Shown: in pieces, positions 35,597 through 50,323 of the stretch
Layout of the letters: every line of letters starts with the position of its first letter
How positions within the stretch are numbered: the first letter of the stretch is position 1
DNA from: a virus
Lineage: Duplodnaviria > Heunggongvirae > Uroviricota > Caudoviricetes
IMG/VR virus record: IMGVR_UViG_3300043410_000715
Coordinates: 25,711-89,710 of that record
DNA: 64,000 nt
Strand: one strand, 5' to 3'
Notes under the pieces: model-generated
What the model was told of the DNA's origin: nothing
The model's database searches: none
The model's input: only the letters and a program-made list of their open reading frames with translations
Made by a program: the position numbers and the translations under genes

Positions 35597-35625
35597 AAGA
35601 TAATGGAATGATAAATAATAGATAT

Positions 35626-35654
35626 AGTGTATCACAATTACGCAATAAAGTCAA
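35626..35654 (-). promoter_or_regulatory. sigma70-type promoter TTGACT-N17-TACACT upstream of uvdE
   Basis: Minus strand reads TTGACTTTATTGCGTAATTGTGATACACT, in the divergent intergenic region. Confidence 0.5.
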
Positions 35655-35673
35655 CTATTTACGGATTAACGAT

Positions 35674-37245
35674 ATGAAAATCAGACAATTAATGGAAGGC
35701 ACTGAGCCAAACATGCCAGGAGCCCCAAAAGGCATCCAAATTATGACACCTCAGCAATTCGTTGCTAAAGCTGGTGATATGCCCGGAGAAGAAAAGATAG
35801 ACGAATTTGCACCTCCTGGTGGCGATGACCGTGAACCTGACGAGGAAGAAGTATTACGCAAATTAGCCGCACAGTGGTGGAACGGTACCGAACAACAAAT
35901 GGATAAAGCCCAAAAAACATTAGAAGTAATGGGTTGGGAAATTGGCCCTGATGAGTCCGGTGATGATGATGCCGGAGTATATGTATATCGTATTGGGGAC
36001 GATGACGGTAGAGATACAATAGCATTTAGACATAGTGAATTAGATTTAGATGAAGGTCAACAACATCTATTAAGAATCCGCGAACTATCTGGCTTAGATG
36101 AAGCAACTAAACTACCAGCACAAAGTCGTGAATTTGGTGGTGATGAATTTCAAGACTACATGAAACGTATCGTTGGTACACCTGATCTTGACAAAGAAGG
36201 TAACGTTAAAGTAGATAAGAAGGGCATTGAAAAATATAAATCTGGTAAAACAAAATCAGACAGATATAAAATGCCTTATATCCATCGTTCAAGCGTAATT
36301 GAATACTTAGGACCAGATGGAAAGACATACAGTGAAGATAAAATCAAACAAGCATTAGCAGAACGTCCAAAGAAGTTACTAAAACAAAACGAAAAGATGA
36401 AGCACAGTAATGGAGAGTTTGAACAATTCTTCAACGTTGGCTTTGCGGCATTAACAGGTATTGCATTAGATGAAGATACAAACAAACTAATCATTGTTAA
36501 TACATGTCCTGGAGCTGGTTCATGTAAAGTTGATTGTTTCGCTATGAAGGGCGGTAAAGTTCAATTCAAAGCCGCTTGGTTAAGTGATGGTCGTATCTTA
36601 ACATATCTATTGAATGACCCAGACGGTTTCTTCAATCAATTAAGTAATGAGATTTCCGCGGAAGAAGCCGCAGGTAAAAAGGGTGATAAAAAGTTTCCTA
36701 ATGGTTGGCAAACAACAATTCGTTGGCATGACGCCGGTGACTTCTTTAGTCCAGAATATTTAGACTTAGCATTAAAGATGGCCGCAAAGCACCCTGATAC
36801 TAAGTTCTATGCGTACACAAAGATGGCCGGTGCCGCATTAGCTAAGAAGCCAGCCAACTTCATTATCAACTGGAGTGAAGGTGCCCACACTTCACAAGAG
36901 AAACAAGTTAAGGCACAAGATCCATCATTAGATACAACAAAGAACAGTCGCATCGTTCCAGATGAATTGTTCCAAGATTTATTAGTTAAGGACGCAAAGA
37001 AGAACTTGGTTAAGGGGCCAGAAGGCCAATGGCAAGTGCAACCTGACAAGTTACCTGAACTAAAACAACGTCTTGCTAAACAGTATGGATTGAGTGCTAA
37101 CTCTATATTGAGTTATGATGAGTACATGGCTAAACGTAAGTCAATACCTGCTGGTATGAAATACAACGTAATCGTAGCACCAGGTGAAGGTGATATCAGT
37201 GCTAACGATCCTAACATCATTGCGACACTATTATTGAAACACTAA
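35674..37245 (+). CDS. hypothetical large protein (acidic N-terminal region)
   Basis: ORF 35608-37245, 523 aa from Met at 35674. No recognisable catalytic motif. Confidence 0.55.
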   Translation: MKIRQLMEGTEPNMPGAPKGIQIMTPQQFVAKAGDMPGEEKIDEFAPPGGDDREPDEEEVLRKLAAQWWNGTEQQMDKAQKTLEVMGWEIGPDESGDDDAGVYVYRIGDDDGRDTIAFRHSELDLDEGQQHLLRIRELSGLDEATKLPAQSREFGGDEFQDYMKRIVGTPDLDKEGNVKVDKKGIEKYKSGKTKSDRYKMPYIHRSSVIEYLGPDGKTYSEDKIKQALAERPKKLLKQNEKMKHSNGEFEQFFNVGFAALTGIALDEDTNKLIIVNTCPGAGSCKVDCFAMKGGKVQFKAAWLSDGRILTYLLNDPDGFFNQLSNEISAEEAAGKKGDKKFPNGWQTTIRWHDAGDFFSPEYLDLALKMAAKHPDTKFYAYTKMAGAALAKKPANFIINWSEGAHTSQEKQVKAQDPSLDTTKNSRIVPDELFQDLLVKDAKKNLVKGPEGQWQVQPDKLPELKQRLAKQYGLSANSILSYDEYMAKRKSIPAGMKYNVIVAPGEGDISANDPNIIATLLLKH

Positions 37246-37799
37246 TGCGTGATATTATTCAGTTACTTGAGGATAAAAGTAAACCTCAAGATATAGAAAT
37301 CATTGCTCTGAACTTTGAGCCAAAAGAAGTAAGTCCGGTTATGTCTAAAGACACACTTGATTTGCACTATGGCAAGTTAGCGCATGGTTATGCTGAACGA
37401 TATAACAAAAAAGAAGGCGACAGAGAATTTAATTATGCAGGAGCATTCTTACATAATACATTGTTCCCTCAATTCCGCGAGTTAAGAAACAACAACAAAC
37501 CAAACGGTCCTATCGAAGGATTTATTAAAAGACATTTTGGTTCATGGGAAGATTTCAAAGACAAATTTGAAGAAGAAGCAATGAAAATTGAAGGTAGTGG
37601 TTGGGTCTACTTAGCATACGACGGTTCAATCAAGACCATTAAAAACCATGAAGTTCGCAACGACATACTACTTTTAGTTGATTGGTGGGAACATGCTTGG
37701 ATACTTGATTATGGCTCAGACAAGAAAAAGTATCTGAAAGAACAGTGGAAGATTATTAACTGGAACGTTGTCAACACACGATGGGGTAAGAGTTTATAA
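37245..37799 (+). CDS. Fe/Mn superoxide dismutase-like protein
   Basis: 184 aa. C-terminal LLLVDWWEHAWILDYGSDKKKYLKEQWKIINWNVVNTRW matches the SOD signature DxWEHAYY...NWdeVakR. N-terminal His ligands (LHYGK..H, AFLHNTLF) are conserved. Confidence 0.7.
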   Translation: MRDIIQLLEDKSKPQDIEIIALNFEPKEVSPVMSKDTLDLHYGKLAHGYAERYNKKEGDREFNYAGAFLHNTLFPQFRELRNNNKPNGPIEGFIKRHFGSWEDFKDKFEEEAMKIEGSGWVYLAYDGSIKTIKNHEVRNDILLLVDWWEHAWILDYGSDKKKYLKEQWKIINWNVVNTRWGKSL

Positions 37800-37829
37800 A
37801 ATAGTAATTTATCCGCAATAAATAATTTT

Positions 37830-39125
37830 ATGAATAAATTATCAATTTCGGAAGATGACTGTAATTTAATAACCAATAGCGAATATTTCTGCCCAGCCCC
37901 GTTCTCAAATAAACACATAAACACAGATGGCACTGTTAGCCCATGTTGTGTAATAAATAGAACCCAACCTCTACTACATTATTCAGACCCGAATTCTTAT
38001 AATTCTAATCAGATAAAACAGATGAGGGAAAATATAATTAACATCAAACCATCTGTAGAGTGCAAAAGATGCTACGAAACAGAACGCACTGGAATTAGGT
38101 CTTACCGTCAAGGTATGGTAGAACAATTCAAAAAAGATTTTATAAAAAATACCAAAGATAATATCAACCTTGATTATTCTTTAGACAATCCAAAAATATT
38201 ATATTTGGATTTAATGATTGATAATACATGTAATCTCAGATGTAGATACTGTAGCAGTGTGTTTAGTTCTAGTTGGAGTAATGAGACAGCATCACTATTC
38301 AAAGAAATACCTGTTTTTAAAAAAATAATGCGTAGACCTATTCATATGAAAAGGTTAACTGGTTTAGAAAATATTGAATCAATCAAAAACGACTTACGAA
38401 CTGTTGAAAAAATATACTTTGCAGGTGGTGAACCGCTTGTAAATGACGTTCATTATCAAATTTTGGAATATTTAATTGACAACGGAAAAACTGATGTAGA
38501 AATAAACTATTCTACAAATTTTACAAATATCAAAAGAGTAATAAATTATTGGAGTAAATTTACAAATTTACGTGTGGGTGCTAGTTTAGATGCTAATTAC
38601 AAGCGAGGAGAATACATACGAAAAAATCTAGTATGGAATGATATTGTAAAAAACAGAGAACTTATGATTGAAAAACTACCTAATGTAAAATTTTCAATAA
38701 ATTCTACTATAAACATATTCAACGCATATAACATAGTTGATTTCCATCGTGAATGGATAGATAAAAAATTAATAGGACCTTATGATTTTTTCATATATTC
38801 TATTGTGTCTAACCCTGAACATTACGATATTAAAAATCTACCAAAACATCATAAAGATAATTTGTCTAAAATATACAAAGACCATATTGAATACTTACGT
38901 ACATTACCCAGTGCCAATACTAATTGGTATTTTCCTGAATTTAATAGTAATACACACCCGGACTTTACGATACAGTCATTTAATGGTATTTTAGGTAGAT
39001 TGAACCTTGATGCAGAAGATTTTACTAGTTACTGGGAAGTAGATAAATGGCTCGATGCGAATAGGAACGAGTCCTTCGTTGAAATTTTTCCTGAATATTC
39101 GGACTTTGAAACGTTTTTTAGATAA
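37830..39125 (+). CDS. radical SAM domain protein
   Basis: 431 aa. CxxxCxxC motif (DNTCNLRCRYC). An additional N-terminal Cys cluster (CPAPF...SPCC...CKRC) suggests an auxiliary Fe-S cluster. Confidence 0.65.
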   Translation: MNKLSISEDDCNLITNSEYFCPAPFSNKHINTDGTVSPCCVINRTQPLLHYSDPNSYNSNQIKQMRENIINIKPSVECKRCYETERTGIRSYRQGMVEQFKKDFIKNTKDNINLDYSLDNPKILYLDLMIDNTCNLRCRYCSSVFSSSWSNETASLFKEIPVFKKIMRRPIHMKRLTGLENIESIKNDLRTVEKIYFAGGEPLVNDVHYQILEYLIDNGKTDVEINYSTNFTNIKRVINYWSKFTNLRVGASLDANYKRGEYIRKNLVWNDIVKNRELMIEKLPNVKFSINSTINIFNAYNIVDFHREWIDKKLIGPYDFFIYSIVSNPEHYDIKNLPKHHKDNLSKIYKDHIEYLRTLPSANTNWYFPEFNSNTHPDFTIQSFNGILGRLNLDAEDFTSYWEVDKWLDANRNESFVEIFPEYSDFETFFR

Positions 39126-39132
39126 ATACTAG

Positions 39133-39825
39133 ATGAGAGCAAGTGAGTTTATCAAAGAAGAAGCTAGAATTATCGATGAGATGCCGCTACCTGCGGATTG
39201 GGATCCTGCATCAATGCGTCAGCAAGCTACTACGTTCAAAAGTCGTTTAGCCTATGCGTTAGAACGTGCTAAAAAATTAGGCACCGGATCAAGTCGTGTT
39301 GCTACTGTTATTGAGTATGAAGGTCGTCCTACTGTATTAAAGATTGCTAAGAATCAAAAAGGTCTAGCACAGAACAGTGTTGAGGCAGATATTCTTAGTG
39401 ATGGATATGCAAAACAGTTAGGTATACTAATACCAATCATTGACTATGATGAAGAAAATCGTGAACCTAGTTGGATTCACACTGAAATGGCCACTAAAGC
39501 TAGTGAGAAACAATTGTGTAACATAATGAAATGTTATGGTCTTGTTGATTTAGTTATGGCCGCACAAGCTCAATTAAATGAATATGGACAACGTTCACGT
39601 AGTGTACTGGACGACATTCTTGAAAAAAATCAGTTCTATGGTAACAGTGAAGATGACAATGAAATCTTCCTGCAATATGTTAACGACTTCGCTGACTTGA
39701 AGAATTCGTTTGATGTTGAATTGGGTGATTTTAACAGAGCCGCTAATTGGGGCATGTATCAAGGTAAACCAGTTGTAGTTGATGTGGGATTCAACAGCAA
39801 TGTTATGAATCAATATTATCGTTAA
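39133..39825 (+). CDS. hypothetical protein
   Basis: 230-aa ORF, last gene of the plus-strand island. Confidence 0.5.
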   Translation: MRASEFIKEEARIIDEMPLPADWDPASMRQQATTFKSRLAYALERAKKLGTGSSRVATVIEYEGRPTVLKIAKNQKGLAQNSVEADILSDGYAKQLGILIPIIDYDEENREPSWIHTEMATKASEKQLCNIMKCYGLVDLVMAAQAQLNEYGQRSRSVLDDILEKNQFYGNSEDDNEIFLQYVNDFADLKNSFDVELGDFNRAANWGMYQGKPVVVDVGFNSNVMNQYYR

Positions 39826-40646
39826 ACTTTTAACAACTCTTCCATCGTATACAAGTTACGCATATAAGGTGAAACATCTTCTAATACAGAAACAGCAAGA
39901 TCACCTTTTCTTCTAGGTCCATACTTTACATCAAAGTCACAATCGTTTACTTCCATAAATTTATTGACAATTTCACGAACAGTATATCCAACACCATGTC
40001 CCAATGATTCAACACTATTACTTGGTTTCTCTATTGCTTGCTTTAATGCATCACAAATCTCATTGACATGTACATAGTCACGAATACAAGTTCCATCAGG
40101 ACTTGCATCATAGTCCTTACCGAAAATAGTGAATTCTCCTGTTTCTCGGGCCTTCATTAAATTGTACATTAATCCATCGGGGTTAGTGGGAGCCACGACG
40201 GTGCTTCCAATAACATTATAAAATCTAAAGATTGTATATGGTGTCGGGCGATGGGTTGTACAATATTCTCCAACTACATCTTCTGCGGCTCTTTTGCTAA
40301 TACCGTATGCACTCTCACATCCAACTGCGGCACCTGTACTAGCAAAGATAAAGTTCTTTGTCTTGATTTTGTTAATCACATTCATTGTACCATTCAAGTT
40401 TGTGATGTAATACTGAATGGGTATTTGTTCGCTCTCACCCACATTAACTAATGCGGCTAAGTGAATAACGGCATCATATTCTTCTTCAATATTAAACAAT
40501 TTACGAATGTCAATCGTGTGATGCGTCTTGGGGAGTAGTTGCGGTGGATTAATGTCAAGCCCATGAACTTCATATTCATCTTGTAACATCTTAGTCAGAT
40601 GACTACCGATATATCCCGAGTTGCCTGTAATTAAAATCTTTTTCAT
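39822..40646 (-). CDS. NAD-dependent epimerase/dehydratase (short SDR-type sugar-nucleotide epimerase)
   Basis: 274 aa. N-terminal Rossmann motif ILITGNSGYIGSHL. Catalytic YxxxK (YGISKRA). Confidence 0.75.
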   Translation of the reverse strand: MKKILITGNSGYIGSHLTKMLQDEYEVHGLDINPPQLLPKTHHTIDIRKLFNIEEEYDAVIHLAALVNVGESEQIPIQYYITNLNGTMNVINKIKTKNFIFASTGAAVGCESAYGISKRAAEDVVGEYCTTHRPTPYTIFRFYNVIGSTVVAPTNPDGLMYNLMKARETGEFTIFGKDYDASPDGTCIRDYVHVNEICDALKQAIEKPSNSVESLGHGVGYTVREIVNKFMEVNDCDFDVKYGPRRKGDLAVSVLEDVSPYMRNLYTMEELLKV

Positions 40647-41998
40647 AGTCCCTCAAATAAGTTAGTTTCTTCTTCGTCTGGTACAAAGGTAGCATCTTTT
40701 GATAGATAAGTGTGATTGTCCGTATAAATGACGTTGAATTTATGTCTATTGGTTAACACACTTTCAAAATCTTCTCTCGCTAAATGTTTACGATTTAACT
40801 CTTTGATATAGTCAGCGTATTTCACTGTTTCGTATTCATTGATTTTAGCTTGATTAGATTTTGCTTTTCTACCTTCATACCCGTCAATAAAATCAATCCA
40901 AGACTGAACAGTATCAGTGTCAATAGACTTGACATATTCTAACGCTCCTGTTTTGTAATATTTTTCTGGATTAGATGTGTCGTGTAATCTTTTTAACGTG
41001 TCAGAAACTTCATCCATGTTAGTTCTATAATAGTAGATGTGTAGGAAATTCTCAGACCAATCTTGTGTGTCTAACACTACGCTAGGCATGTGTCCTAAAC
41101 ATTCATAGAATGCGAACGGAAAGTTTTCACGCAAGCTAGGCATAAAAAATACTGCACAACTTTTAATAAAGTCTACTTTCTCTTGTCCAGTAATCCCTGC
41201 TTTGATTTCGTAGTCAGTGATACCATTCTCTGCAAAAGCCTTCTCGAACTTCTTTTGTCCGTTACTGTTAGTCATAACTTTGCAGGGTAATCCTGATTCT
41301 TTCATCGCTTTGATATATGCTTCTGGGTTCTTACCTTCTTCCCATCGACCAATAAACAATACACCCCTGCGTTTCTTATAACTAGGCTCTAGTAACCCAC
41401 GCTCACTCAATGGCATCTGTAAAATACTTACATATTTTGAACCATGACTTTCTAATTCTATTTTGTTTTTCAGTGATTGAGTGCCGATAAAGATATCAGG
41501 AAATTCCATATGTTTGTTGTAGAAGTTGTGATAACTATCTAAGAACACATCACTACCTTGACCTGAACGGAAAATCATACTGTGTAAATGAGTATAGAAA
41601 ATCACAGGGATATCTTTATTCAAAGTCATCGCATAAGCCGCACTCATTGCTTCCTGCGTGTTGCACAAAATCATGTCATAGAGATTTTCTTCAAATGCTT
41701 CTAAGATGCTGTTACGGAAATTAATAATCTTTTCAAAGTTGATTGTATCACTAAACGCAAATGTAGCAGTGTGGTCACTATAACGTAGTGGTTCTAGTGG
41801 CCAAATAATGTTGGCACCAGCAGCCTCAATCACTTTATCAAACCCACCTGTAGGAGCCTTGTCTAAAAGAATATCTACTTTCCAACCAATCCGACCACAC
41901 ATTTCTGTAAAACTCTTACAGAAACTACCAATGCCACCATGCGGGATAAAATGTTGGTCACTAATTAAAAACGCAATTCTTTTCTTATATGTTTTCAT
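40643..41998 (-). CDS. glycosyltransferase (GT-B fold, GT4-like)
   Basis: 451 aa. Start overlaps the epimerase stop. Confidence 0.6.
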   Translation of the reverse strand: MKTYKKRIAFLISDQHFIPHGGIGSFCKSFTEMCGRIGWKVDILLDKAPTGGFDKVIEAAGANIIWPLEPLRYSDHTATFAFSDTINFEKIINFRNSILEAFEENLYDMILCNTQEAMSAAYAMTLNKDIPVIFYTHLHSMIFRSGQGSDVFLDSYHNFYNKHMEFPDIFIGTQSLKNKIELESHGSKYVSILQMPLSERGLLEPSYKKRRGVLFIGRWEEGKNPEAYIKAMKESGLPCKVMTNSNGQKKFEKAFAENGITDYEIKAGITGQEKVDFIKSCAVFFMPSLRENFPFAFYECLGHMPSVVLDTQDWSENFLHIYYYRTNMDEVSDTLKRLHDTSNPEKYYKTGALEYVKSIDTDTVQSWIDFIDGYEGRKAKSNQAKINEYETVKYADYIKELNRKHLAREDFESVLTNRHKFNVIYTDNHTYLSKDATFVPDEEETNLFEGL

Positions 41999-42234
41999 AC
42001 CTCACCTTTTAATCTCAAAATAATAAATTCTTCTTTGCACATCCATTTATACGAATCGATAATTTGCGTATCATATCTACGAGCCTTATAACCACGATAA
42101 GCAAACTGTAGCCACATAACCTGCATTGTTTCAATACAACGTTGTGGTAACCAACAGAACTTCAGTTCCCAAGCACGAGTTTTGCGTTCGTACTCATTAA
42201 GGTCGATTTCTTGATATTCTGGAACATCGATCAT
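41995..42234 (-). CDS. hypothetical protein
   Basis: 79-aa ORF. Confidence 0.45.
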   Translation of the reverse strand: MIDVPEYQEIDLNEYERKTRAWELKFCWLPQRCIETMQVMWLQFAYRGYKARRYDTQIIDSYKWMCKEEFIILRLKGEV

Positions 42235-42449
42235 TCAATTTTACCCCATTTAACTTTGAGCCATATGCGTTCGTGTATATAGTAATCTATACTTAGAAGT
42301 ATGTGAATCAGAACTGAACTCCCGATTGATTCTTCTAAGTTACCAGTAAGCCAATACATTATTGGTATTGTGAGTAACCACGCTGATAAGCGATAGGTAA
42401 TCATTCTAACTACTGTTCGTTTGTGTGTCTCTGCCATCATGTTCCCCAT
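42231..42449 (-). CDS. small membrane protein
   Basis: 72 aa with two TM helices. Confidence 0.45.
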   Translation of the reverse strand: MGNMMAETHKRTVVRMITYRLSAWLLTIPIMYWLTGNLEESIGSSVLIHILLSIDYYIHERIWLKVKWGKIE

Positions 42450-43279
42450 TCATTTTTAAATAATGGCACTTGCAATCTATCACTATAACGCCAGCCACGT
42501 TTCATTGCTGCCAATGCTACATTCTTTGCGTTCATTTCGTAAACACTTTCAACACCACCAACGGGCATCAAGTAGACTGGACCTTTGAATCCGCAGTTTT
42601 TGTATTCTTGTGTAGCTTTTTCAGCTTCCAATACATCTTCTTCTGAAGCCACCACGAACTTAAGGTATACAAAACCCACATCTTGGTATTGACGTATAAC
42701 ATTAGGCAAAATTGCTTCATTATACTTTTCTCCACTTACTGATAATTTAGGACTTACACTAAAAGTTAGTGCATTCTTTTCTCTATTTCTTTTCCAAAGT
42801 TGCAAGAATTCTTTAAATTCTTCACTCAAATGTTGTGTTCCGTTAGTCTCAAATGTTAACTCTTTGAGAGCCCTCATTTTTTCGTTCGAAAGTAATTCAG
42901 GATAGCTTCTTTGCCATCCAAGAAGTGGCTCACCCCCAGTAATAACCAAGTGTTCATCCATCCAACGACCATGAGGAAGTAAATCAATAATGCTATCGGC
43001 AATAGTATTAACATTGAGCATAGGACTAAGATGCTTGAAACGAGGGTCCCATGAAGCATATGAATCACAGCCCGTAGACACCAACGGTAAATTTTTATAC
43101 TCTGTAATACTATCTGCATCAATTGTAAACCTTTCATTACTAGTTTGACCTCTAGGCATACCGAAGCCTTCACATTTGAAGTTGCACCCAAATGTTCTCA
43201 AAAACACAGAAGGAACGCCCATATAACGTCCTTCACCTTGAATGCTATAAAATAATTCAGCTATTTTTAACTCTGCCAT
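42437..43279 (-). CDS. queE: 7-carboxy-7-deazaguanine synthase QueE (radical SAM)
   Basis: 280 aa. N-terminus FYSIQGEGRYMGVPSVFLRTFGCNFKC matches QueE (FQTLQGEGYFTGVPAIFIRLQGCPVGC). Confidence 0.85.
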   Translation of the reverse strand: MAELKIAELFYSIQGEGRYMGVPSVFLRTFGCNFKCEGFGMPRGQTSNERFTIDADSITEYKNLPLVSTGCDSYASWDPRFKHLSPMLNVNTIADSIIDLLPHGRWMDEHLVITGGEPLLGWQRSYPELLSNEKMRALKELTFETNGTQHLSEEFKEFLQLWKRNREKNALTFSVSPKLSVSGEKYNEAILPNVIRQYQDVGFVYLKFVVASEEDVLEAEKATQEYKNCGFKGPVYLMPVGGVESVYEMNAKNVALAAMKRGWRYSDRLQVPLFKNEWGT

Positions 43280-43298
43280 TTCTTTCTTTCATAATTCT

Positions 43299-43853
43299 TT
43301 ATGATAAATCAATAACCATTTCTTGTAAATAGAACTCGGAAAAATCTTCAATATATGGTACTATTGTTTTTACCAGTGTACTTACTTTCATTCTATCAGT
43401 TGGATTTTCGCCAGACGTATCTGCGGCTTTTGTATCAATCCATCCTGGAAAAACTGACATTATCAATGGTGTCTTTTTGGTGTTAGCATGTTGTCTAGCG
43501 AAAACCATTTGATTCATTTTTTCCGTATAATATTTTGATTCTTGTGTGCCCGGAACAATCAATGAAGGATCCTTTAACACCTTTTTACTATTCATGTTTA
43601 CTATTAACTTTTTAAAACCCAACCAAGATGCTGTTGCCTTCTTTAATAATTCAAGTTGTGATTCACCATAAACATTATTAATAAACACATCGCACGATTT
43701 TAACTGTTCAAGTATTAAATCTTGCGTGTGACTGTCAACTACATTATAGCCATTTAGCAAATCATAACCATGTATCACATGACCTGCATTTCTTAACTGA
43801 GTGGCAAATTCTAAACCAATACCACCCATATGCCCTGTAATTACTATATTCAT
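43299..43853 (-). CDS. short-chain dehydrogenase/reductase-like protein (truncated SDR)
   Basis: 184 aa. TGxxGGIG dinucleotide motif (ITGHMGGIG), YxxxK (YYTEK) and PGxIxT (PGWIDT). Confidence 0.6.
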   Translation of the reverse strand: MNIVITGHMGGIGLEFATQLRNAGHVIHGYDLLNGYNVVDSHTQDLILEQLKSCDVFINNVYGESQLELLKKATASWLGFKKLIVNMNSKKVLKDPSLIVPGTQESKYYTEKMNQMVFARQHANTKKTPLIMSVFPGWIDTKAADTSGENPTDRMKVSTLVKTIVPYIEDFSEFYLQEMVIDLS

Positions 43854-44002
43854 TTACCAATGCCTTATAACGCCTGCAACAATAAAAATATTTGTGACTA
43901 TATATGTTAGCACAATGCAGGTTCTAATCAAAGCGATACGGTCAGCTTCCTGATCCGTATCACCTGATTTTTCGCCAAGGGCTTTCGCCCATAAACGCCA
44001 AA
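43854..44002 (-). CDS. small membrane protein (49 aa)
   Basis: Below cutoff. MKNIWRLWAKALGEKSGDTDQEADRIALIRTCIVLTYIVTNIFIVAGVIRHW. Stop overlaps the ATG of the SDR gene as TAAATG. Confidence 0.3.
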
Positions 44003-44011
44003 TGTTCTTCA

Positions 44012-44632
44012 TTATCCTTGGTCAGTATCGTGTATACGCTTCTTTAAGAAGTTCAATAGAACACCATATGCTGGTAAGAACACAATAATACCTACTGCAA
44101 TCTTTAGGATAGTTTGACTCAATGCAATTTCACTCCAGTTAGCCGCCATGTATTCGTCTGCACTTTGATAGAATGCAACACTGAAGAATGTGTAACTATC
44201 AATAAAGTTTGCGGCAATCATTGATAATGCAGGAGCCGCCCACCATTGCTTAGTGAACTTCTCACGGACATATTGGAATACATATACATCAAGTAGTGTA
44301 CCTACTAAGTATGCTGTTGCACTAGCAAAACCAATACGCAATGCTACTGATTGAGGTGCTCCCTCTAACAATACAACTGCAATACTACCTAAGATAGCAA
44401 ATGGATATGCTGCCGCAATAGTTGCCCGTGCAATACCTTTACCTAGTAAACGGACTGTCAAGTCTGTTGCCAAAATAACTAATGGGAAGGTAAATGCCGC
44501 CCAAGTTAATTTAACACCTAAGATTTCAACTGGGATTGAAACCAATGCGTTTGAAATTATAATAACAATAACGTGCAATACTGCAAGCATTGCCATCATT
44601 TTCTTATCTACGTCTTTAAATAATGAAAACAT
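44012..44632 (-). CDS. yhhQ: queuosine-precursor (preQ0/preQ1) transporter, YhhQ/Vut (DUF165) family
   Basis: 206 aa, six TM helices. Size and topology match YhhQ. Sits within the que gene cluster. Confidence 0.7.
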   Translation of the reverse strand: MFSLFKDVDKKMMAMLAVLHVIVIIISNALVSIPVEILGVKLTWAAFTFPLVILATDLTVRLLGKGIARATIAAAYPFAILGSIAVVLLEGAPQSVALRIGFASATAYLVGTLLDVYVFQYVREKFTKQWWAAPALSMIAANFIDSYTFFSVAFYQSADEYMAANWSEIALSQTILKIAVGIIVFLPAYGVLLNFLKKRIHDTDQG

Positions 44633-44634
44633 TT

Positions 44635-45138
44635 TTACTCCTTAAATAAATCTTCATTCCACTCTCTATGACCTTCTCTGAAAGCCATATTGCTTTGAGT
44701 CTCCCGTACTTCTACACGGTAGCACCAAAGTCTTTTTGCTTCTCCCTCACCCCACATCTCAGGAATGTAAACACCATTGACATACTTGTATAGCATATCA
44801 CTTAGTGCTTCACAACCTAACGCAGGCAAGACGATGATTTTAGCCATCTTCTTTTCTTGTAATAGTTTGAATGTTTCCATTTCTGGATCATCTTGTGCTA
44901 CGATAAGTGTGTGGTCGAATTGATCTTCCAAGAACTTCTTCAATTCTTTTAGACCACCATAGTCGGCAGCCCAGTTACGGGCATCTAAATCGTTTGTACC
45001 GAAATAGAATTTCATACTGAAACTGTAACCATGAATTGTGTTGCAATGGCTGTCTGCACGCCATTGACGATAAGCACACGGAAACGCATCGTGGTATTCT
45101 TTTGTGCTTGTGTATTTGTATGTAATTGGATTATGCAT
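44635..45138 (-). CDS. queD: 6-carboxy-5,6,7,8-tetrahydropterin synthase QueD / PTPS-like
   Basis: Start moved to Met21 (AGGAGAAAAT Shine-Dalgarno). CNTIHGYSF matches the QueD zinc motif CGRLHGHSF. T-fold size. Confidence 0.75.
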   Translation of the reverse strand: MHNPITYKYTSTKEYHDAFPCAYRQWRADSHCNTIHGYSFSMKFYFGTNDLDARNWAADYGGLKELKKFLEDQFDHTLIVAQDDPEMETFKLLQEKKMAKIIVLPALGCEALSDMLYKYVNGVYIPEMWGEGEAKRLWCYRVEVRETQSNMAFREGHREWNEDLFKE

Positions 45139-45212
45139 ATTTTCTCCTATGTTAATTTTAGCATAGGACGCAGAATTTATATACCGGGGTGAGCCCATAA
45201 GACCGGTTTATG

Positions 45213-45674
45213 TTATTTACCATTTTCAGATTCAGCTACTCTTTTTCTCAAACTAGAACTTGAGAAACTATGGTCACGAGAGTTAAACACGTGTTCTATA
45301 CCTTTTTCGGTCCCTTCTTTTCTACCAGTAAAGTCCTGACTTTGATATTCGACACCGAGTATTCTAACGTCAACTGGAAGGATGAGGAGAAGGTCGATGA
45401 GGTCTTGTTCGGTTGAGTATACAACAACTTCATCAACAAAACGACACGATGCCAATTGTATTTGTCGCTCCACAATTGACTGTACAGGTTTATTCTTCGT
45501 ATCTGGTCTGTCGATAGTGGGGTCAGTTTGGAGTCCTGCAATAAGGTAGTCACAATGATTTTTAGCCTCAGCCAACATAGCAATGTGCCCTGCGTGAAGT
45601 AAGTCAAAAGTTGAGAATGTAATGCCAATCTTTTTGCCTGCTTCTTTAAGTTGTTTTATCTTGTTGAATATCAT
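45213..45674 (-). CDS. nucleotidyltransferase (cytidylyl/adenylyltransferase, TagD / RfaE domain II-like)
   Basis: 153 aa. HxGH motif (FDLLHAGH). Confidence 0.75.
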   Translation of the reverse strand: MIFNKIKQLKEAGKKIGITFSTFDLLHAGHIAMLAEAKNHCDYLIAGLQTDPTIDRPDTKNKPVQSIVERQIQLASCRFVDEVVVYSTEQDLIDLLLILPVDVRILGVEYQSQDFTGRKEGTEKGIEHVFNSRDHSFSSSSLRKRVAESENGK

Positions 45675-45969
45675 CTGGTAGTATTTCTTCTATTTCTGTT
45701 TCATCTTCAAAGTAATGAACATGATAAGTTTTACCTGCATGTTCATATACATCTGTCCATGATCTTTGATTGTTACTTGATTCAATTGGTTCTACTAAAG
45801 CAAATACAGTTAACATGTGGTCATGTTCTTGACCTGTGATTTTCCTACGATTAGGACCTAGAATATGTCGCATGAACTTTTTAAGTTCTACTGGATCATT
45901 TATGATTCTTTCAGCAGCCTCTTGTATTAGTTCAACGCTTGTTTTAGTCATAACTTTAAAGTCTTCCAC
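45646..45969 (-). CDS. hypothetical protein
   Basis: 107-aa ORF. Confidence 0.45.
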   Translation of the reverse strand: MEDFKVMTKTSVELIQEAAERIINDPVELKKFMRHILGPNRRKITGQEHDHMLTVFALVEPIESSNNQRSWTDVYEHAGKTYHVHYFEDETEIEEILPDDIQQDKTT

Positions 45970-46241
45970 ATTACACGCTGTTCATTCTCTTTTAAGAATT
46001 GTTCTTCATCAGCGAATGTAGGACTATCTTTCATAATCTGATCCAACATCCATTTGAGTTTATACAAATCTTTTTTGATTTCCCATTGAGTGAAACCGTC
46101 ATTGTATTTGCTACTCATTTCTACACCTGCCATATAGATTTGATGATGCACTTGATTGTAGTCCATTGGTTTACGAAATCCCATCTTTCTTCTCCTTGCA
46201 GTTACAGTTACGACCTTGATTGCAGTTACCTGTACAAGCAC
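45948..46241 (-). CDS. hypothetical protein
   Basis: 97-aa ORF. Confidence 0.45.
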   Translation of the reverse strand: MLVQVTAIKVVTVTARRRKMGFRKPMDYNQVHHQIYMAGVEMSSKYNDGFTQWEIKKDLYKLKWMLDQIMKDSPTFADEEQFLKENEQRVMWKTLKL

Positions 46242-46371
46242 TATCTGGTGTGTTCTTTATAGTATAAAACATGAACAAGCCCGCCACACAAAATAAAAAT
46301 ATGTAAACTGCTTGTTCAATAATCATTCCAAGTAATAAACTCATGTTTGAAAGAAATTCAATCATTTGCAT
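46171..46371 (-). CDS. small membrane protein with Cys-rich C-terminus
   Basis: 66 aa. One TM helix. CTGNCNQGRNCNCKEKK tail. Confidence 0.4.
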   Translation of the reverse strand: MQMIEFLSNMSLLLGMIIEQAVYIFLFCVAGLFMFYTIKNTPDSACTGNCNQGRNCNCKEKKDGIS

Positions 46372-47042
46372 CCTTTGTTAGCAATTTGTAAGAACTCACC
46401 ACGTGCAGATGGATCTGTTTTGAAACCGCCACCCAATCGGCATGTAACTGTGCTGGATCCCGTATCTTCAACACCTCTTGATTTAACACAATAGTGTTGT
46501 GCGTCAATGAGGACTGCAACATCTTCAGTTTCAAGAATGAACTGAAGTGTGTGGAAGATTTGCTCGGTAAGACGTTCTTGGATCTGAGGTCGTTTACTAA
46601 AATACTCGACAATTCGATTAATCTTCGATAAGCCAAGGACTTTCTGCTTAGGAACATAAGCAACTGTAGCCAAGCCATCAATAACGACAAAGTGATGTTC
46701 GCAGTTACTTTGGACTGAAACGTTTCGTTCAACGACCATTTCGTTGTAGTGCATTTTGTTATCAACTGTAGTACACTTTGGAAATGCTTCATAATCTAGA
46801 CCCCAGAAAATTTCATTAACATACATTTTAGCAACACGCTTAGGTGTTTCAGTTAAACTATCATCAGTTAAGTCTAATCCTAAGATACGCATGATTTCAG
46901 TGAAGTGACCTTCGATGCCTGCAATTTGATCCTTGCGGTCGATGTTGCGTTTGTTGATTGGTGTTTCTACACCCATTTTGACTAAGTGCTCATGCACTTG
47001 TTGACCCAACTCAGGGTCGGTTTTTGTTTTGTTATAACTCAT
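46362..47042 (-). CDS. folE: GTP cyclohydrolase I FolE
   Basis: Start moved to MSYNKTKT (AAGGAAGGA Shine-Dalgarno). Aligns along its full length to E. coli FolE, including the CEHH zinc motif and the SKINR block. Confidence 0.9.
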   Translation of the reverse strand: MSYNKTKTDPELGQQVHEHLVKMGVETPINKRNIDRKDQIAGIEGHFTEIMRILGLDLTDDSLTETPKRVAKMYVNEIFWGLDYEAFPKCTTVDNKMHYNEMVVERNVSVQSNCEHHFVVIDGLATVAYVPKQKVLGLSKINRIVEYFSKRPQIQERLTEQIFHTLQFILETEDVAVLIDAQHYCVKSRGVEDTGSSTVTCRLGGGFKTDPSARGEFLQIANKGCK

Positions 47043-47077
47043 AGAATCCTTCCTTACGCGGATATGAAAATTGAAAT

Positions 47078-47097
47078 GTGCTACCGTTGTGTAGCAC
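47078..47097 (-). terminator. hairpin GTGCTAC-n6-GTAGCAC upstream of folE (possible terminator or attenuator)
   Basis: 7-bp perfect inverted repeat followed on the minus strand by ATTTCAATTTTCA. Confidence 0.3.
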
Positions 47098-47109
47098 ATG
47101 TATTTATAC

Positions 47110-47352
47110 TCAGTTGTCGAGTTCTTTAGAATTCCACTCTTTGATTACGGCGATCATTTCTTCTTCCGTGTTGCAAAGAATTTTACAATTCTTCCAATCT
47201 GAATCTGAATCACGACCTCCGATTTCTACCATAAAACCGTTATCATACCGATTGACACTGATAGATTCATTTACTTTTGCGAGTTTGTTTAGTTTTGACA
47301 TTTTATTTTGCCTTTGCTTCAGCACGTTCGTTTTTAGTTGCTGTAATTTCAT
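47110..47352 (-). CDS. hypothetical protein
   Basis: 80-aa ORF. Confidence 0.45.
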   Translation of the reverse strand: MKLQQLKTNVLKQRQNKMSKLNKLAKVNESISVNRYDNGFMVEIGGRDSDSDWKNCKILCNTEEEMIAVIKEWNSKELDN

Positions 47353-47494
47353 TACGGCGAGCCTTAACTGCCTTCGCTAATTCTGCTAGTGCTTTACGGG
47401 CACGTGTGCCTGCGGCATTGTTGCCCTTTTCAAATTTTTCACTCTCTGCTAAATATGCTTCCAAGTGTGTGTTGATATCGTTATGTGCGCTCAT
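47303..47494 (-). CDS. small basic histone-like DNA-binding protein
   Basis: 63 aa. KGNNAAGTRARKALAELAKAVKARRNEITATKNERAEAKAK. Confidence 0.45.
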   Translation of the reverse strand: MSAHNDINTHLEAYLAESEKFEKGNNAAGTRARKALAELAKAVKARRNEITATKNERAEAKAK

Positions 47495-47718
47495 TTTTTC
47501 TCCTTTGATTTACGCTTTGGTTTTGGTTTTGCTTTCGCTTCTTCTGTTTCTACAGAGGCAATTGCTTCTCTTACTGCTTCCAATAATGCTTCATCGTCCC
47601 AAACAAGTTCAGTTGAACCATCTTCAAAAGTCTTTACGGTCAGGTGTTGACCTTGACTAATTACGGGCCAACCACCTGATGGTTCGTTAGCCAATACTTC
47701 TTTTTTCTTTCGTGCCAT
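47491..47718 (-). CDS. hypothetical protein with Lys-rich C-terminal tail
   Basis: 75 aa. Ends in EEAKAKPKPKRKSKEKK. Confidence 0.45.
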   Translation of the reverse strand: MARKKKEVLANEPSGGWPVISQGQHLTVKTFEDGSTELVWDDEALLEAVREAIASVETEEAKAKPKPKRKSKEKK

Positions 47719-48224
47719 TATTCTTCCTCCTTAGTGCCTTCTTGTGGTCTAGTGAAGGGCCATTTTGCTCTTTCTTCTACAATAGGTGCAAGTTCAGGTA
47801 AGACTTCTTCTTCTGGTTGACCAGTGTGAATAATTTGTTCTTCGTCACCGTCGATGCGTTCAATGATTAAGTCGCAATCAATAATCATTTCAGTATCATT
47901 GCTATACCAACCGTGTTCTTCCAAATCAAATACAGAATTTTCTTCTAGGAATTCTTCTAGCCACGCTTGTGTTTCTTCATCACAACCGTCGAAATCATAA
48001 TCGTCCCAGCATCCATCAAATGTTTCTACAAGTTCAGTTTCATAGTCACAGTTATAGATATCTACACCTGCTTCAATGTCTGGGGGATTGTCATCATCTG
48101 TGTATACAGTAAACTCACCACCGCGCCAACCTGTTTCATAGATGAATGATTGTCCATCTTTAGTCCATTCTTGGCGCTCAATAATTGATTTCTTCCACTG
48201 GGGTTTTACGCTCCACTCAGCCAT
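47718..48224 (-). CDS. hypothetical highly acidic protein
   Basis: 168-aa ORF. Confidence 0.5.
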   Translation of the reverse strand: MAEWSVKPQWKKSIIERQEWTKDGQSFIYETGWRGGEFTVYTDDDNPPDIEAGVDIYNCDYETELVETFDGCWDDYDFDGCDEETQAWLEEFLEENSVFDLEEHGWYSNDTEMIIDCDLIIERIDGDEEQIIHTGQPEEEVLPELAPIVEERAKWPFTRPQEGTKEEE

Positions 48225-49134
48225 TTGTTGTCTCCTCTAAATCTGGATCGATACTAATTCCCTGCCACTCTTTAATTTTCACTTCTTCATCATTCCATGT
48301 CTTGATCCACTTATCACCAGTCCACTTTGCTTGATATGTATAACTATTCTTACCAGCAGTCTTTACATTATATATACCTTCACGGACTGGTTTGATTTTT
48401 TTAGGGAACCAGTCAGTCAATGGATAAACAATGTCATCCATGTTTGAATACTTCTCGTATCCCTTACCATCGTGCTTGTTAGAGCCTGCAATGTAGAAAC
48501 CAAAGTCTGAACTCTTGCCACTAGTGTCACCACCGTAGTTGTCAATTTGTTCATCGTTATAGTACACACCGGTGATGATTTCGTTACAATCAATCTCTGA
48601 ATATTCGAGTGAAAGTTTAGTGATATCGAAAGGAGATTTTAGTTCTAAGTGACCTTCATAGAACGTACCTTTCTCACTGCTTACTCCTAAGAATACAACA
48701 GTGCCTGGATCTTTCATGTCAATCCATATCTCGTCACCACCACGCCATTCAGGGCTATCTTCACTGTAACCATCAATGTTATCAGTACTGGCTTCATAAA
48801 CTACATTGTCGTTTTCGTCTAAGATTTGCAACGTGCCTGCGCCTCTGTCAACACCCCAGTGATGACCCATATCATCACAGTCATGCCATTGACCTGGATA
48901 GAATGGTTGCATATCTTCAGGAATTTGATTGTCATTAGCATAGTCACTATCCCAGGCATAGTCACTTATGTCAAGACGGCGTCTTTTGAAATAGTCGTAT
49001 ATTTTGCGGTCTACTGTACCCATCACATATTCACCACCATATCCCCACAATTGAATCTTGTAAGTACACGGAGTGAACTTTAAAATCTCAATGAGTTTTT
49101 CATGCTCAGGGTTTTTAACTACTTCTGTTGACAT
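48217..49134 (-). CDS. hypothetical protein
   Basis: ORF 48217-49230 trimmed to Met33, which sits 1 nt after the stop of the upstream glycosyltransferase (TAA-T-ATG). Confidence 0.5.
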   Translation of the reverse strand: MSTEVVKNPEHEKLIEILKFTPCTYKIQLWGYGGEYVMGTVDRKIYDYFKRRRLDISDYAWDSDYANDNQIPEDMQPFYPGQWHDCDDMGHHWGVDRGAGTLQILDENDNVVYEASTDNIDGYSEDSPEWRGGDEIWIDMKDPGTVVFLGVSSEKGTFYEGHLELKSPFDITKLSLEYSEIDCNEIITGVYYNDEQIDNYGGDTSGKSSDFGFYIAGSNKHDGKGYEKYSNMDDIVYPLTDWFPKKIKPVREGIYNVKTAGKNSYTYQAKWTGDKWIKTWNDEEVKIKEWQGISIDPDLEETTNG

Positions 49135-49135
49135 A

Positions 49136-50323
49136 TTAGTATTTGCTTTCTCTAGAATGTTTACGATAATCGGTTGACATACGAAGGTATTGTTCACCCT
49201 TCCCCTCAATGATATCACAGATACGGTCAATAGTCAAGTCAGTCCAGTCACTGATTTTACCCATGTTATCACTGGGCTTCTTCAATAACTTTTCAAGTTT
49301 GTCCAAAGCATCATCAATAGACCATGGTACGTAAAGTCTGGTATAATCATTTGCAAAAGTTTCTGGGAAACTCCTATAAGCAGGATACAACACATTGCAA
49401 CCAAGAGCGTCCGCTTCGGAAACTGTGTTACTAACCCAATCTTGTAAAGCACAGTTAAAAACAACACGACTATCATTGACAATATTATAGTAATCATTTT
49501 TGTTTAAATCCTCATGTAAAGTTAAGGTTCCTGCAGCCTGCATATTTCGGGTGCGTTGCATATAACTATCGTTGTTACTTTTTAATTTTGCACCTGAACA
49601 AATTGCAAACTCTACACCACTTCCAGGATGACGTTTGTGCCAAGCATCAATTAAATCCATATAGAAGTCTGGTTGTTTTTCTTGATCCCATCGTGCTGAG
49701 AACACGACACGATGTTTGCGTTCATTGAATGGTTTGATTGTACCAACTCGTTCAATTACTTCTTGTTTACCAAATGCTAGACCACTGATATTGTAGATTG
49801 GAACTTCCCAACCTGCAATCTTCATGTTCATGACCATTTCTTCGTTAGACGCAAGGATAGCACCCCCACTTTGACTGACAGCCTCACACACCATCTGTTC
49901 ATATAGCCCCATCCACTTGGACATCCCCCATACATGCACAAAGTCATCAGGGTCGATTGACTGAGCCAAGCATCTAACAAAAATCTTTGGACGATGCGAC
50001 TGAGGGACCTGATTAAGAATATAAGGCAAACTCTCAAAGCCTGGTTGAAACATATCTTCAAAGTAGATAACATCTTCACTTGTAACAATTCCTTCTTTCA
50101 TCCACTTGACCAATGTCATTAATTGACTCATGCCAAAATAACTACGACCATGTGCATCTAATACTTGACCTGTTACGATTTGTTGGTCTGTAGATAATGT
50201 TTCACCGGGTACTACTACATAGTCAATACCTCTACGCTTAAAGACACGCTCATTCCACTCTGTGAGTTGTAGAGTGTATCTTGCTTTGTAGGGTTCTAGA
50301 CCCATGTAATATAGTGTTCTCAT
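49136..50323 (-). CDS. glycosyltransferase (GT-B fold)
   Basis: 395 aa with two Rossmann-like halves. Overlaps the upstream nucleotidyltransferase by ATGA. Confidence 0.6.
   Translation of the reverse strand: MRTLYYMGLEPYKARYTLQLTEWNERVFKRRGIDYVVVPGETLSTDQQIVTGQVLDAHGRSYFGMSQLMTLVKWMKEGIVTSEDVIYFEDMFQPGFESLPYILNQVPQSHRPKIFVRCLAQSIDPDDFVHVWGMSKWMGLYEQMVCEAVSQSGGAILASNEEMVMNMKIAGWEVPIYNISGLAFGKQEVIERVGTIKPFNERKHRVVFSARWDQEKQPDFYMDLIDAWHKRHPGSGVEFAICSGAKLKSNNDSYMQRTRNMQAAGTLTLHEDLNKNDYYNIVNDSRVVFNCALQDWVSNTVSEADALGCNVLYPAYRSFPETFANDYTRLYVPWSIDDALDKLEKLLKKPSDNMGKISDWTDLTIDRICDIIEGKGEQYLRMSTDYRKHSRESKY

Follow-up and report, generated by a model that had tools for sequence, protein, structure and literature searches.

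A four-gene island on the plus strand of an uncultured jumbo phage genome, kin of the RaK2/Atu_ph07 group, places the gene of a superoxide dismutase (SOD) homologue directly before that of a radical-SAM enzyme. Does this adjacency reflect a dedicated protective pair, as a first-pass annotation of the sequence proposed, or does it follow from the way the locus is built? From the 64-kb stretch of DNA that was analysed (the window) and its relatives, we consider it likely that the island is a conserved operon with a core of a GP88-family protein and a compact Fe/Mn-SOD, followed by a hypervariable cargo slot that here holds the radical-SAM gene, with no dedicated pair. The four plus-strand open reading frames are present at the coordinates first assigned to them, behind a leader motif:

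35650 to 35664, plus strand: leader motif GTCAACTATTTACGG (inside GCAATAAAGTCAACTATTTACGGA), 9 nt 5' of the first start codon.
35674 to 37245, plus strand: core gene for a GP88-family protein (PF17338) of 523 aa, Pfam score 82.5 bits.
37245 to 37799, plus strand: compact Fe/Mn-SOD homologue of 184 aa, from Pfam Sod_Fe_C and a ligand alignment.
37830 to 39125, plus strand: radical-SAM enzyme of the N-terminal-twitch family NF033640, 431 aa, NCBIfam score 311.7 bits.
39133 to 39825, plus strand: orf230 (phrog_4301), 230 aa, beginning MRASEFIKEE, a slot gene with an N-terminal tag.

By DNA polymerase, the nearest cultured relatives of the phage are Atu_ph07, Phosso, XaC1, Vibrio phage 2.275.O and the RaK2 group. 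The genes flanking the island lie on the minus strand, and both GC skew and AT skew change sign over 36 to 40 kb. The GP88 stop codon overlaps the SOD start by 1 nt (TAATG), the next two genes follow after 30 nt and 7 nt, and this spacing makes the suggested co-transcription of the four genes feasible. At the 3' end, the stop codon of orf230 overlaps that of a convergent epimerase gene (TTAA, 39822 to 39825). The exact leader motif occurs once in the window, and each of 15 related loci likewise has a single copy, in every case 7 to 9 nt 5' of the first plus-strand gene. Because the motif appears once per locus in this position and the genes are tightly spaced, we read the four genes as a single operon behind the motif, which probably serves as a promoter or as a translation-initiation element. 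The operon would thus begin at the leader motif, with the GP88-family protein and the compact SOD as its core and the cargo slot downstream.

The SOD-like gene is found in at least 342 viral contigs at 77 to 90% identity, and the 80 loci most similar to that of the window were compared with 6 kb of flank each. The order UvdE, GP88, SOD, slot (0 to 3.3 kb), epimerase, glycosyltransferase (GT) and QueE is shared by 24 of the 80. The GP88 gene adjoins the SOD-like gene in 24 of the loci examined and is its conserved upstream partner. Its product had been called unknown, which still describes the function but not the family, since the GP88 model was matched. A longer ATG is available at 35608; the start at 35674 is favored because the conserved leader motif lies 9 nt upstream of it. 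More than 2,200 relatives of the protein were found, with a variable N-terminal third and a nearly invariant C-terminal portion of ∼390 aa that contains C278-x5-C284-x3-C288, RWHDAGDFF and FYAYTK motifs. The structure model of this protein is unreliable (pLDDT 49.9).

Downstream of the SOD gene, the slot yielded 26 ORFs from 19 loci, none of them a radical-SAM gene. Of the 26, 22 start MRAxEF. A large set of slot genes, orf230 among them, is otherwise unrelated and has in common the N-terminal tag M-R/K-A-x-E-F-I/L-x-E (MRAxEFIxE). Across all ORFs in the SOD loci the tag is present in 74 of 1,090, compared with 0 of 1,249 in bacterial control loci. The tag resembles the capsid-targeting sequence of T4 internal proteins, MKTYQEFIAE (PMC8442874, PMC3012670), and orf230 is accordingly a candidate for packaging in the head or for injection. 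The locus and that of T4 IPI, IPII and IPIII are both hypervariable and encode unrelated proteins that have only an N-terminal tag of ∼10 aa in common; however, T4 is only distant kin, packaging and cleavage are putative for the proteins with the MRA-x-EFI-x-E tag, and the locus described here also holds the SOD and a GP88-family enzyme.

The likeness between the tags also speaks for a broader reading, in which the products of the entire operon are packaged in the head and ejected together with the DNA. On this view, the prohead would receive GP88, the SOD and the tagged slot proteins, each cleaved after an L/I-x-E site, and the SOD would be delivered at infection or would shield the packaged DNA. 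The T4 protease site is L/I-x-E, and it fits both the conserved 17-aa extension of the SOD (MRDIIQLLE-D) and the invariant L6-x-E8 of GP88. In addition, the Pseudomonas phage PA5oct homologue, which begins MNDSIKKYISIAEA, has a GenBank entry with an ESI-MS/MS note. However, that note is also attached to FolE, QueD, FtsH and a ligase of PA5oct, and the PA5oct paper counts seven virion-unrelated enzymes among 93 virion-linked products. Moreover, the N-termini of the SOD and GP88 do not fit the tag itself, and the radical-SAM protein is without it. Packaging of the whole operon is, in our judgment, unlikely, and we retain the reading of a core with a cargo slot.

The radical-SAM gene encodes an intact member of NF033640 (N_Twi_rSAM) and is accessory cargo in the slot of this one lineage. 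The match to the family is full-length and well over the cutoff of 170 bits, and the Pfam Radical_SAM model scores 40.7 bits. As the first-pass annotation noted, the CxxxCxxC motif (C134-x3-C138-x2-C141) is accompanied by extra N-terminal cysteines (C21, C39, C40, C78 and C81); none of these cysteines varies in an alignment of 69 sequences, and the protein keeps 37 of 37 invariant family columns, a count that follows from the construction of alignment A1. A twitch domain spans approximately residues 18 to 100, the core barrel with C134, C138, C141 and GGE 199-201 residues 125 to 330, and a helical C-terminal domain residues 331 to 431 (AF2 model, pLDDT 93.1). The earlier statement that the protein has no SPASM domain is correct for the C-terminus but wrong in spirit, because the cysteine cluster at the N-terminus constitutes a twitch (half-SPASM) domain; a weak Pfam SPASM match falls at residues 21 to 49. 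No sequence match for the protein was found in the PDB. In the predicted structure, the partial TIM-barrel and an auxiliary Fe-S domain are shared with BlsE (7vob), anSMEcpe (4k36), MoaA (1tv7), SkfB (6efn) and BtrN (4m7s), but the auxiliary domain is N-terminal here and C-terminal in the solved SPASM/twitch enzymes, and the window protein adds the helical C-terminal domain. C134, C138 and C141 would bind the SAM-cleaving cluster, the twitch cysteines would bind an auxiliary cluster, and the 5'-deoxyadenosyl radical would take a hydrogen from the substrate.

Identities as QueE, anaerobic RNR activase, viperin or MoaA were rejected on scores far below the NCBIfam cutoffs, so that the protein is not QueE, as had been said. 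The protein has a named family, but not a well-known one, as NF033640 is uncharacterised. The gene stands alone in the window; in phages and bacteria, by contrast, many members of the family are found as three to seven paralogues in tandem. The gene has a GC content of 29.9% (GC3 24.1%), compared with 36 to 41% for its neighbors, and is a recent insertion.

As to the substrate, which the first-pass annotation rightly left open, our tentative guess, which we hold at somewhat less than even confidence, is a sugar-containing molecule, for example a nucleotide sugar, a sugar nucleoside or a glycan. It draws on phage radical-SAM arrays that adjoin genes for a DegT aminotransferase, a GFO/IDH/MocA oxidoreductase and an epimerase, and on other such arrays that adjoin a carbamoyltransferase or an Asp/Arg hydroxylase and a GT2 gene. 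Passages of Zaragoza-Solas et al. 2020 (PMC7029224) likewise place pelagimyophage radical-SAM cassettes in a glycosyltransferase-rich host-recognition cluster. Against a sugar, the genes near bacterial NF033640 members mostly encode further radical-SAM paralogues or PhyH dioxygenases; the 86 ORFs counted there include only a single epimerase and a single GT. The island itself adjoins a module of epimerase, GT and cytidylyltransferase genes, a position that was counted for a sugar; the epimerase and GT are core genes, also present where the radical-SAM gene is not, and this was counted against it. A peptide or protein substrate, as in RiPP-like or structural-protein maturation, appears improbable. 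A 33-aa ORF bears on this alternative, but it is also present in 22 of 22 LO-class loci without an upstream radical-SAM gene and lies directly 5' of a carbamoyltransferase gene about half the time, and thus shows no specific association with radical-SAM genes; it is also absent from the window.

The SOD-like protein scores 86.5 bits with Sod_Fe_C, over the cutoff, and 21 bits with Sod_Fe_N, under the cutoff of 27. A HMMER alignment to the cambialistic SOD of P. gingivalis (1ues/1qnn) bears out the conservation of all four metal ligands, as H41, H70, D146 and H150 correspond to His27, His74, Asp157 and His161. All 82 phage homologues compared carry these four residues, and the Tyr34 equivalent (Y49) and the bridging Glu are likewise invariant over 82 sequences. 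Compared with bacterial Fe/Mn SODs (E. coli SodB and SodA, and the P. gingivalis enzyme), the phage-encoded protein has the same C-terminal alpha/beta domain and D-x-W-E-H signature, and the ligands, Tyr34 and bridging Glu align. It differs in a helical hairpin shorter by ∼24 residues (in alignment with SodB), a 17-aa N-terminal extension, Leu45 in place of His30, Ala67 in place of FeSOD Gln69 and an invariant N134-H135-E motif at the position of MnSOD N-Q-D. With a dN/dS of ∼0.08, the gene is under strong purifying selection. PA5oct gp261, with its Callisto and MIJ3 counterparts (annotated sodB), and gp049 of Vibrio phage 2.275.O fall within the same short phage clade, at 41% and 36% identity to the window protein, respectively, and in them the ligands and the N-H-E motif are preserved. 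The genes near these cultured-phage SODs encode ClpS, ClpX, ribosomal protein S21 and IF-3, not GP88 or radical-SAM proteins, and no biochemical characterisation of cultured jumbo-phage SOD-like genes was found in the literature searched.

Judged from its sequence, the protein is probably an active, shortened Fe/Mn-SOD that most likely functions in the ordinary manner of an Fe- or Mn-SOD. His41, His70, Asp146 and His150 would hold the metal, Tyr49 would line the substrate funnel, His135 probably replaces the second-sphere Gln, and the enzyme would clear superoxide in the infected cell. A non-catalytic structural or regulatory fold, like FSD2/FSD3 of the plastid RNA polymerase, would account for the Leu and Ala substitutions, the N-terminal domain under the Pfam cutoff, a SodA/SodB equivalog score 5-fold under the cutoff (69.9 versus 348) and the PEP-associated PAP4 and PAP9 among the PDB matches. 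However, the invariant ligands, Tyr34 and bridging Glu, together with the strong purifying selection, make such a role quite unlikely, and active SODs are known in which His occupies the MnSOD Gln146 position.

Synteny bears directly on the proposed pair. Among the 80 loci, the best of at least 342, the radical-SAM gene is never found within 6 kb of the SOD-like gene, and no Fe/Mn-SOD is encoded at 156 loci of N-twitch radical-SAM genes (1.77 Mb). The QueE gene (42437 to 43279, minus strand), which is encoded separately, as had been noted, belongs to a transcription unit on the other strand that is retained whether or not the radical-SAM gene is present; the suggestion that the SOD protects QueE is not supported. 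Radical-SAM clusters are sensitive to oxygen, and the two genes adjoin with a 30-nt gap that makes co-transcription probable, but a dedicated guardian of the radical-SAM enzyme and QueE is largely refuted by synteny and highly unlikely, as the SOD is a core gene of hundreds of contigs without this enzyme at the locus and the radical-SAM gene stands out in composition. On our reading, the adjacency is a by-product of the slot position.

The closest relatives of the radical-SAM gene (54 to 55% identity) lie directly 3' of a gene for the iron/ROS protein Dps, with an 8-nt overlap, a neighbor that counts for the guardian; they do so in the place that SOD has in sister phages, which counts against a dedicated pair. 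This Dps is 86 to 94% identical to the one preceding SOD in loci L035, L037 and L071, with which the downstream genes are syntenic. In three of three lineages of the closest clade, the radical-SAM gene thus directly follows an iron/oxidative-stress gene (SOD here, Dps in two), and it may have a functional link to iron or ROS handling.

What survives of the protective role is a weaker, general one. Neighbors of the SOD in relatives include IscA (PF01521), Dps (PF00210) and IF-1, with an IscA/ErpA-type Fe-S carrier directly 3' in 26 loci and Dps 5' of the SOD in 3. Because of these neighbors in sister phages, the SOD is best read as part of a general iron/oxidative-stress kit, and a general role in guarding iron-sulfur enzymes is plausible. 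Nishimura et al. 2017 (PMC5332604) describe T4-like marine viral genomes that encode A-type carriers and as many as 12 radical-SAM genes; in contrast, no A-type carrier was found within the 64-kb window. The phages of Nishimura et al. 2017 and Zaragoza-Solas et al. 2020 are large and aquatic, and combine A-type carriers with radical-SAM cassettes in variable regions; the passages searched in the latter paper hold no mention of superoxide. On a further phage contig (L228), a SodB-like gene unrelated to this SOD is situated close to an IscA gene.

The four plus-strand genes described in the first-pass annotation are present as it described them, and they form an island flanked by minus-strand genes for UvdE and a flap endonuclease on one side and for a NAD-epimerase, a glycosyltransferase (GT), and QueE on the other:

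35650-35664, plus strand: leader motif GTCAACTATTTACGG, 15 nt, 9 nt before the ATG at 35674; single exact occurrence in the 64-kb window
35674-37245, plus strand: GP88-family gene (Pfam PF17338), 523 aa
36505-37242, plus strand: C-terminal region of the GP88-family protein (residues about 278-523), almost invariant, with the motifs C-x5-C-x3-C, RWHDAGDFF, and FYAYTK
37245-37799, plus strand: superoxide dismutase (SOD)-like gene, 184 aa
37830-39125, plus strand: radical-SAM gene, 431 aa
39133-39825, plus strand: orf230, 230 aa
39133-39162, plus strand: N-terminal tag of orf230, MRASEFIKEE; orf230 is the sole tagged ORF in the window
39822-51096, minus strand: 7-deazaguanine genes interleaved with sugar-nucleotide genes, adjoining the island

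The genes of the island are closely spaced, with a 1-nt overlap (TAATG), a 30-nt gap, and a 7-nt gap at successive junctions, and the stop codon of orf230 overlaps that of the convergent epimerase gene (TTAA). Across 36-40 kb of the window, the sign of the GC skew flips, and so does that of the AT skew. Fifteen related loci (within L011-L054) each contain a single copy of the leader motif GCAATAAAGTCAACTATTTACGGA, 7-9 nt before the first plus-strand gene. This recurrence identifies the motif as a conserved start point of the operon and favors the 523-aa version of the first gene. The motif probably serves this operon specifically, as a promoter or as a signal for translation; scans of the island with promoter and terminator consensus sequences gave counts that were not above those in shuffled sequence. 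At the DNA level, the window had no match among deposited or cultured phages. It encodes a DNA polymerase, a ligase, and a ClpX-like ATPase, and the polymerase, of family B, shares 42-48% identity with its counterparts in the jumbo phages Phosso (Sinorhizobium), Atu_ph07 (Agrobacterium), XaC1 (Xanthomonas), 2.275.O (Vibrio), and the RaK2/K64-1 group. Related contigs from metagenomes are up to 367 kb long, and the window corresponds to the part of a RaK2/Atu_ph07-related jumbo phage genome that serves replication and metabolism.

The C-terminal domain of the SOD-like protein (residues 87-179) matches Sod_Fe_C (PF02777) with 86.5 bits, well over the cutoff of 20.9, and Sod_Fe_N (PF00081) scores 21 bits, below the cutoff of 27, with profile positions 3-48 of 82 matched. 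A HMMER alignment confirmed that all four metal ligands are kept: H41, H70, D146, and H150 pair with His27, His74, Asp157, and His161 of the Porphyromonas gingivalis enzyme (1ues), which in Escherichia coli numbering are His26, His73/81, Asp156/167, and His160/171. None of the four varies among 82 phage homologues, and neither do Y49, the Tyr34 equivalent, and E149. In the second sphere, Leu45 occupies the position of His30 and Ala67 that of the FeSOD Gln69, and an invariant N-H-E motif stands where MnSOD has N-Q-D; we infer that its histidine, His135, is a His-for-Gln variant. The protein also has a conserved N-terminal extension of 17 residues and a helical hairpin ∼24 residues shorter than that of E. 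coli SodB. Its scores against the NCBIfam equivalog models are 69.9 for SodB (cutoff 348) and 49.3 for SodA (cutoff 363), which makes it a divergent homologue and not an orthologue of either. The median pairwise dN/dS against the window copy is 0.08. We conclude that the protein is a divergent, probably active Fe/Mn-SOD. Genes with 77-90% identity to it are found in at least 342 viral contigs, and hundreds of jumbo-phage contigs from the environment have a member of this short, little-studied Fe/Mn-SOD clade as a strongly conserved core gene. Searches of the literature returned no characterized phage Fe/Mn-SOD. In the Pseudomonas phage PA5oct, the SOD-like protein, gp261 (L001, 4956-5504), is annotated as hypothetical. 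Its GenBank entry bears an ESI-MS/MS note, which we read as detection in a virion preparation, and its N-terminus, ...YISIAEA, resembles the cleavage site of the T4 tag.

The attraction of the island had been a purpose-built pair, in which the SOD would act as the dedicated, co-transcribed protector of the radical-SAM enzyme and of QueE. Comparison with related loci argues against this pairing. The order UvdE, GP88, SOD, a variable stretch (the slot), epimerase, GT, QueE is common to 24 of the 80 SOD loci most similar to the window, and the radical-SAM gene is present in none of the 80. Likewise, no Fe/Mn-SOD was found in 156 phage and bacterial loci (1.77 Mb) that carry a radical-SAM gene of the same N-twitch family (NF033640), and a scan of viral contigs for radical-SAM relatives returned only five, at 32-36% identity. 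In the closest relatives of the radical-SAM gene (54-55% identity), it follows Dps with an 8-nt overlap. This Dps is 86-94% identical to the one directly preceding SOD in L035, L037, and L071, and the genes 3' of the Dps and radical-SAM genes are syntenic with those three SOD loci and with 58-63 kb of the window, which indicates that the radical-SAM gene in sister phages holds the position that SOD holds elsewhere. Each of the two genes is found without the other, and among the loci compared they occur together only in the window. The radical-SAM gene also stands apart in composition, with 29.9% GC and a GC3 of 24.1% (neighbors 36-41% GC, window 38%), consistent with recent acquisition. As judged from these comparisons, a functional SOD/radical-SAM pairing is not supported, and the island does not warrant description as a new system.

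A weaker form of the protection proposal fares better. An IscA/ErpA-type Fe-S carrier (PF01521) lies directly 3' of SOD in 26 loci (within L020-L086; e.g., L029 6552-6878), and Dps lies directly 5' in three (e.g., L035 395-835). On an unrelated phage contig (L228), an IscA gene (2-307) lies close to a canonical SodB-like gene (2130-2693), and A-type carriers occur together with up to 12 radical-SAM genes in T4-like marine viral genomes (Nishimura et al., PMC5332604). Given these neighbors and genomes, it is plausible that phage SOD keeps iron-sulfur chemistry running in oxic water as a general role; what falls away is the specificity for this radical-SAM enzyme. An IF-1 homologue lies upstream of SOD in non-syntenic relatives, and the window itself has no detected homologue of IscA, Dps, or IF-1. 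A Mom-family protein is also among the genes that precede the SOD-like gene in relatives.

The constant operon members among relatives are SOD and the GP88-family gene. The latter, with more than 2,200 relatives, is an abundant enzyme-like core gene. The C-x5-C-x3-C motif had raised the idea of a second radical-SAM-like enzyme, which was dropped when hhalign assigned a probability of 1.5% to a match with the radical-SAM alignment. Neither sequence nor profile searches of the PDB with the GP88-family protein returned a match, and its AF2 model (pLDDT 49.9) was unusable because the alignment contained close relatives only.

In contrast to these constant members, the slot is highly variable. The space between SOD and the epimerase gene ranges from 0 to 3.3 kb, and 22 of the 26 ORFs that occupy it in 19 loci start with MRAxEF. 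Across the 80 SOD loci, 57 neighboring ORFs begin with M-R/K-A-x-E-F-I/L-x-E, yet they fall into 11 unrelated BLAST clusters; the tagged ORFs that flank the SOD-like gene in L008-L087 encode proteins of 107-595 aa. A stricter form of the tag pattern was found in 74 of 1,090 ORFs in SOD loci versus 0 of 1,249 in bacterial control loci. In T4, the capsid-targeting sequence MKTYQEFIAE is the sole feature common to the hypervariable internal proteins (PMC8442874; PMC3012670). The orf230 locus is similar in that it is hypervariable and encodes unrelated proteins that share an N-terminal tag close to MKTYQEFIAE. By this likeness, the slot is read as an internal-protein-like hyperplastic locus; it resembles the internal-protein locus of T4, here in a distant RaK2/Atu_ph07-like clade, with packaging of the tagged proteins predicted. 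The radical-SAM gene is untagged and landed in the slot as cargo. A broader reading is that the whole operon is an ejected-protein locus of this abundant uncultured jumbo-phage clade, whose heads would contain the compact SOD and the GP88-family protein as well and would deliver them together with the DNA. We regard this extension as improbable; if true, it would be the first phage known to carry SOD in its virion. The tagged hypervariable locus and the possible packaged SOD are the leads of most novelty, and the slot beside SOD could be a source of anti-defense proteins.

The radical-SAM enzyme belongs to a named, uncharacterized family. It matches NF033640 ("twitch domain-containing radical SAM protein") with 311.7 bits against a cutoff of 170, residues 18-425 covering profile positions 2-396 of 398. 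In an alignment of 69 sequences, C134, C138, C141, and the GGE motif (G199-G200-E201) are invariant, as are the N-terminal C21, C39, C40, C78, and C81. The protein had been described as having no SPASM domain and an extra N-terminal Cys cluster. This holds for the C-terminus, which is helical, has no invariant Cys, and differs from that of canonical maturases in lacking the seven-Cys SPASM domain. The N-terminal part matches SPASM (PF13186) with 18.4 bits against a cutoff of 21.5 (residues 21-49, profile positions 1-23 of 67). Based on the NF033640 match and the invariant cysteines, the extra cluster is an N-terminal twitch (half-SPASM) domain, that is, a putative auxiliary-cluster domain. In the AlphaFold model (pLDDT 93.1), the twitch region forms a beta-hairpin followed by helices. 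The enzyme is distinct from QueE (26.9 bits, cutoff 260), as had been proposed, and is not an anaerobic RNR activase (NrdG TIGR02495, 18 bits, cutoff 131). Scores for viperin (31, cutoff 180) and MoaA (36.9, cutoff 284) are also low, and the protein is far under the NCBIfam cutoffs of peptide maturases. Sequence searches of the PDB with the radical-SAM protein and orf230 returned no match. The family has at least 2,509 relatives at E≤1e-10, and our search found no paper that gives it a substrate. Aquatic phages very commonly carry it, frequently as arrays; on phage contigs, distant members (33-39% identity) are arranged in tandem, with three to seven paralogues per array:

L096, 180-9606: N-twitch array
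L099, 1363-8410 and 11838-13139: N-twitch array
L102, 5680-10770: N-twitch array
L104, 7001-11209: N-twitch array

The neighbors of the phage arrays are of three types, namely an Asp/Arg hydroxylase with a GT2, a DegT aminotransferase with a GFO/IDH/MocA oxidoreductase and an epimerase, or a carbamoyltransferase. Tandem arrays are also present in Legionellales, Haliscomenobacter, and other bacterial MAGs, and bacterial neighbors are mainly radical-SAM paralogues and PhyH dioxygenases. In pelagimyophages, radical-SAM cassettes lie in a glycosyltransferase-rich host-recognition cluster (Zaragoza-Solas et al., PMC7029224). In the window, the adjoining 39822-51096 block interleaves QueE, QueD, FolE, and a YhhQ/Vut_1-like transporter with the NAD-epimerase, two GTs, two cytidylyltransferase-like proteins, and a mannose-6-phosphate-isomerase-type cupin, an arrangement that may indicate a joint pathway for DNA modification or for glycans. 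Our tentative proposal, held at less than even confidence, is that the enzyme carries out radical tailoring of a sugar-containing substrate. The main alternative, modification of a peptide, seems unlikely. A conserved 33-aa ORF (...KELRKRDPFIYK) was considered as the substrate peptide, and in one class of loci it is found with radical-SAM arrays (28 of 30 loci). In another class that has the ORF, arrays are present in 0 of 22 loci, a carbamoyltransferase lies directly 3' in about half of the loci, and the ORF was not found in the window. Since it is equally present without arrays and absent from the window, it provides no specific evidence for a peptide substrate, and it was rejected as a general partner of the carbamoyltransferase module instead.

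Two further observations concern the wider family and this small ORF. The Elusimicrobia bin MJ-2014_bin-0981 carries the N-twitch family on at least 16 contigs. ORFs of 33-50 aa that end in ...[RK]K[RK][LI]KEL[RK]KRDPFIY(K) are present on at least 120 contigs from viruses, as well as in MAGs of bacteria, and had no Pfam, NCBIfam, or literature match:

L096, 14468-14569: 33-50-aa ORF
L104, 12233-12334: 33-50-aa ORF
L186-L305: further examples

They are often downstream of radical-SAM arrays, and the gene immediately 3' is, in about half, a NodU/CmcH-type carbamoyltransferase.
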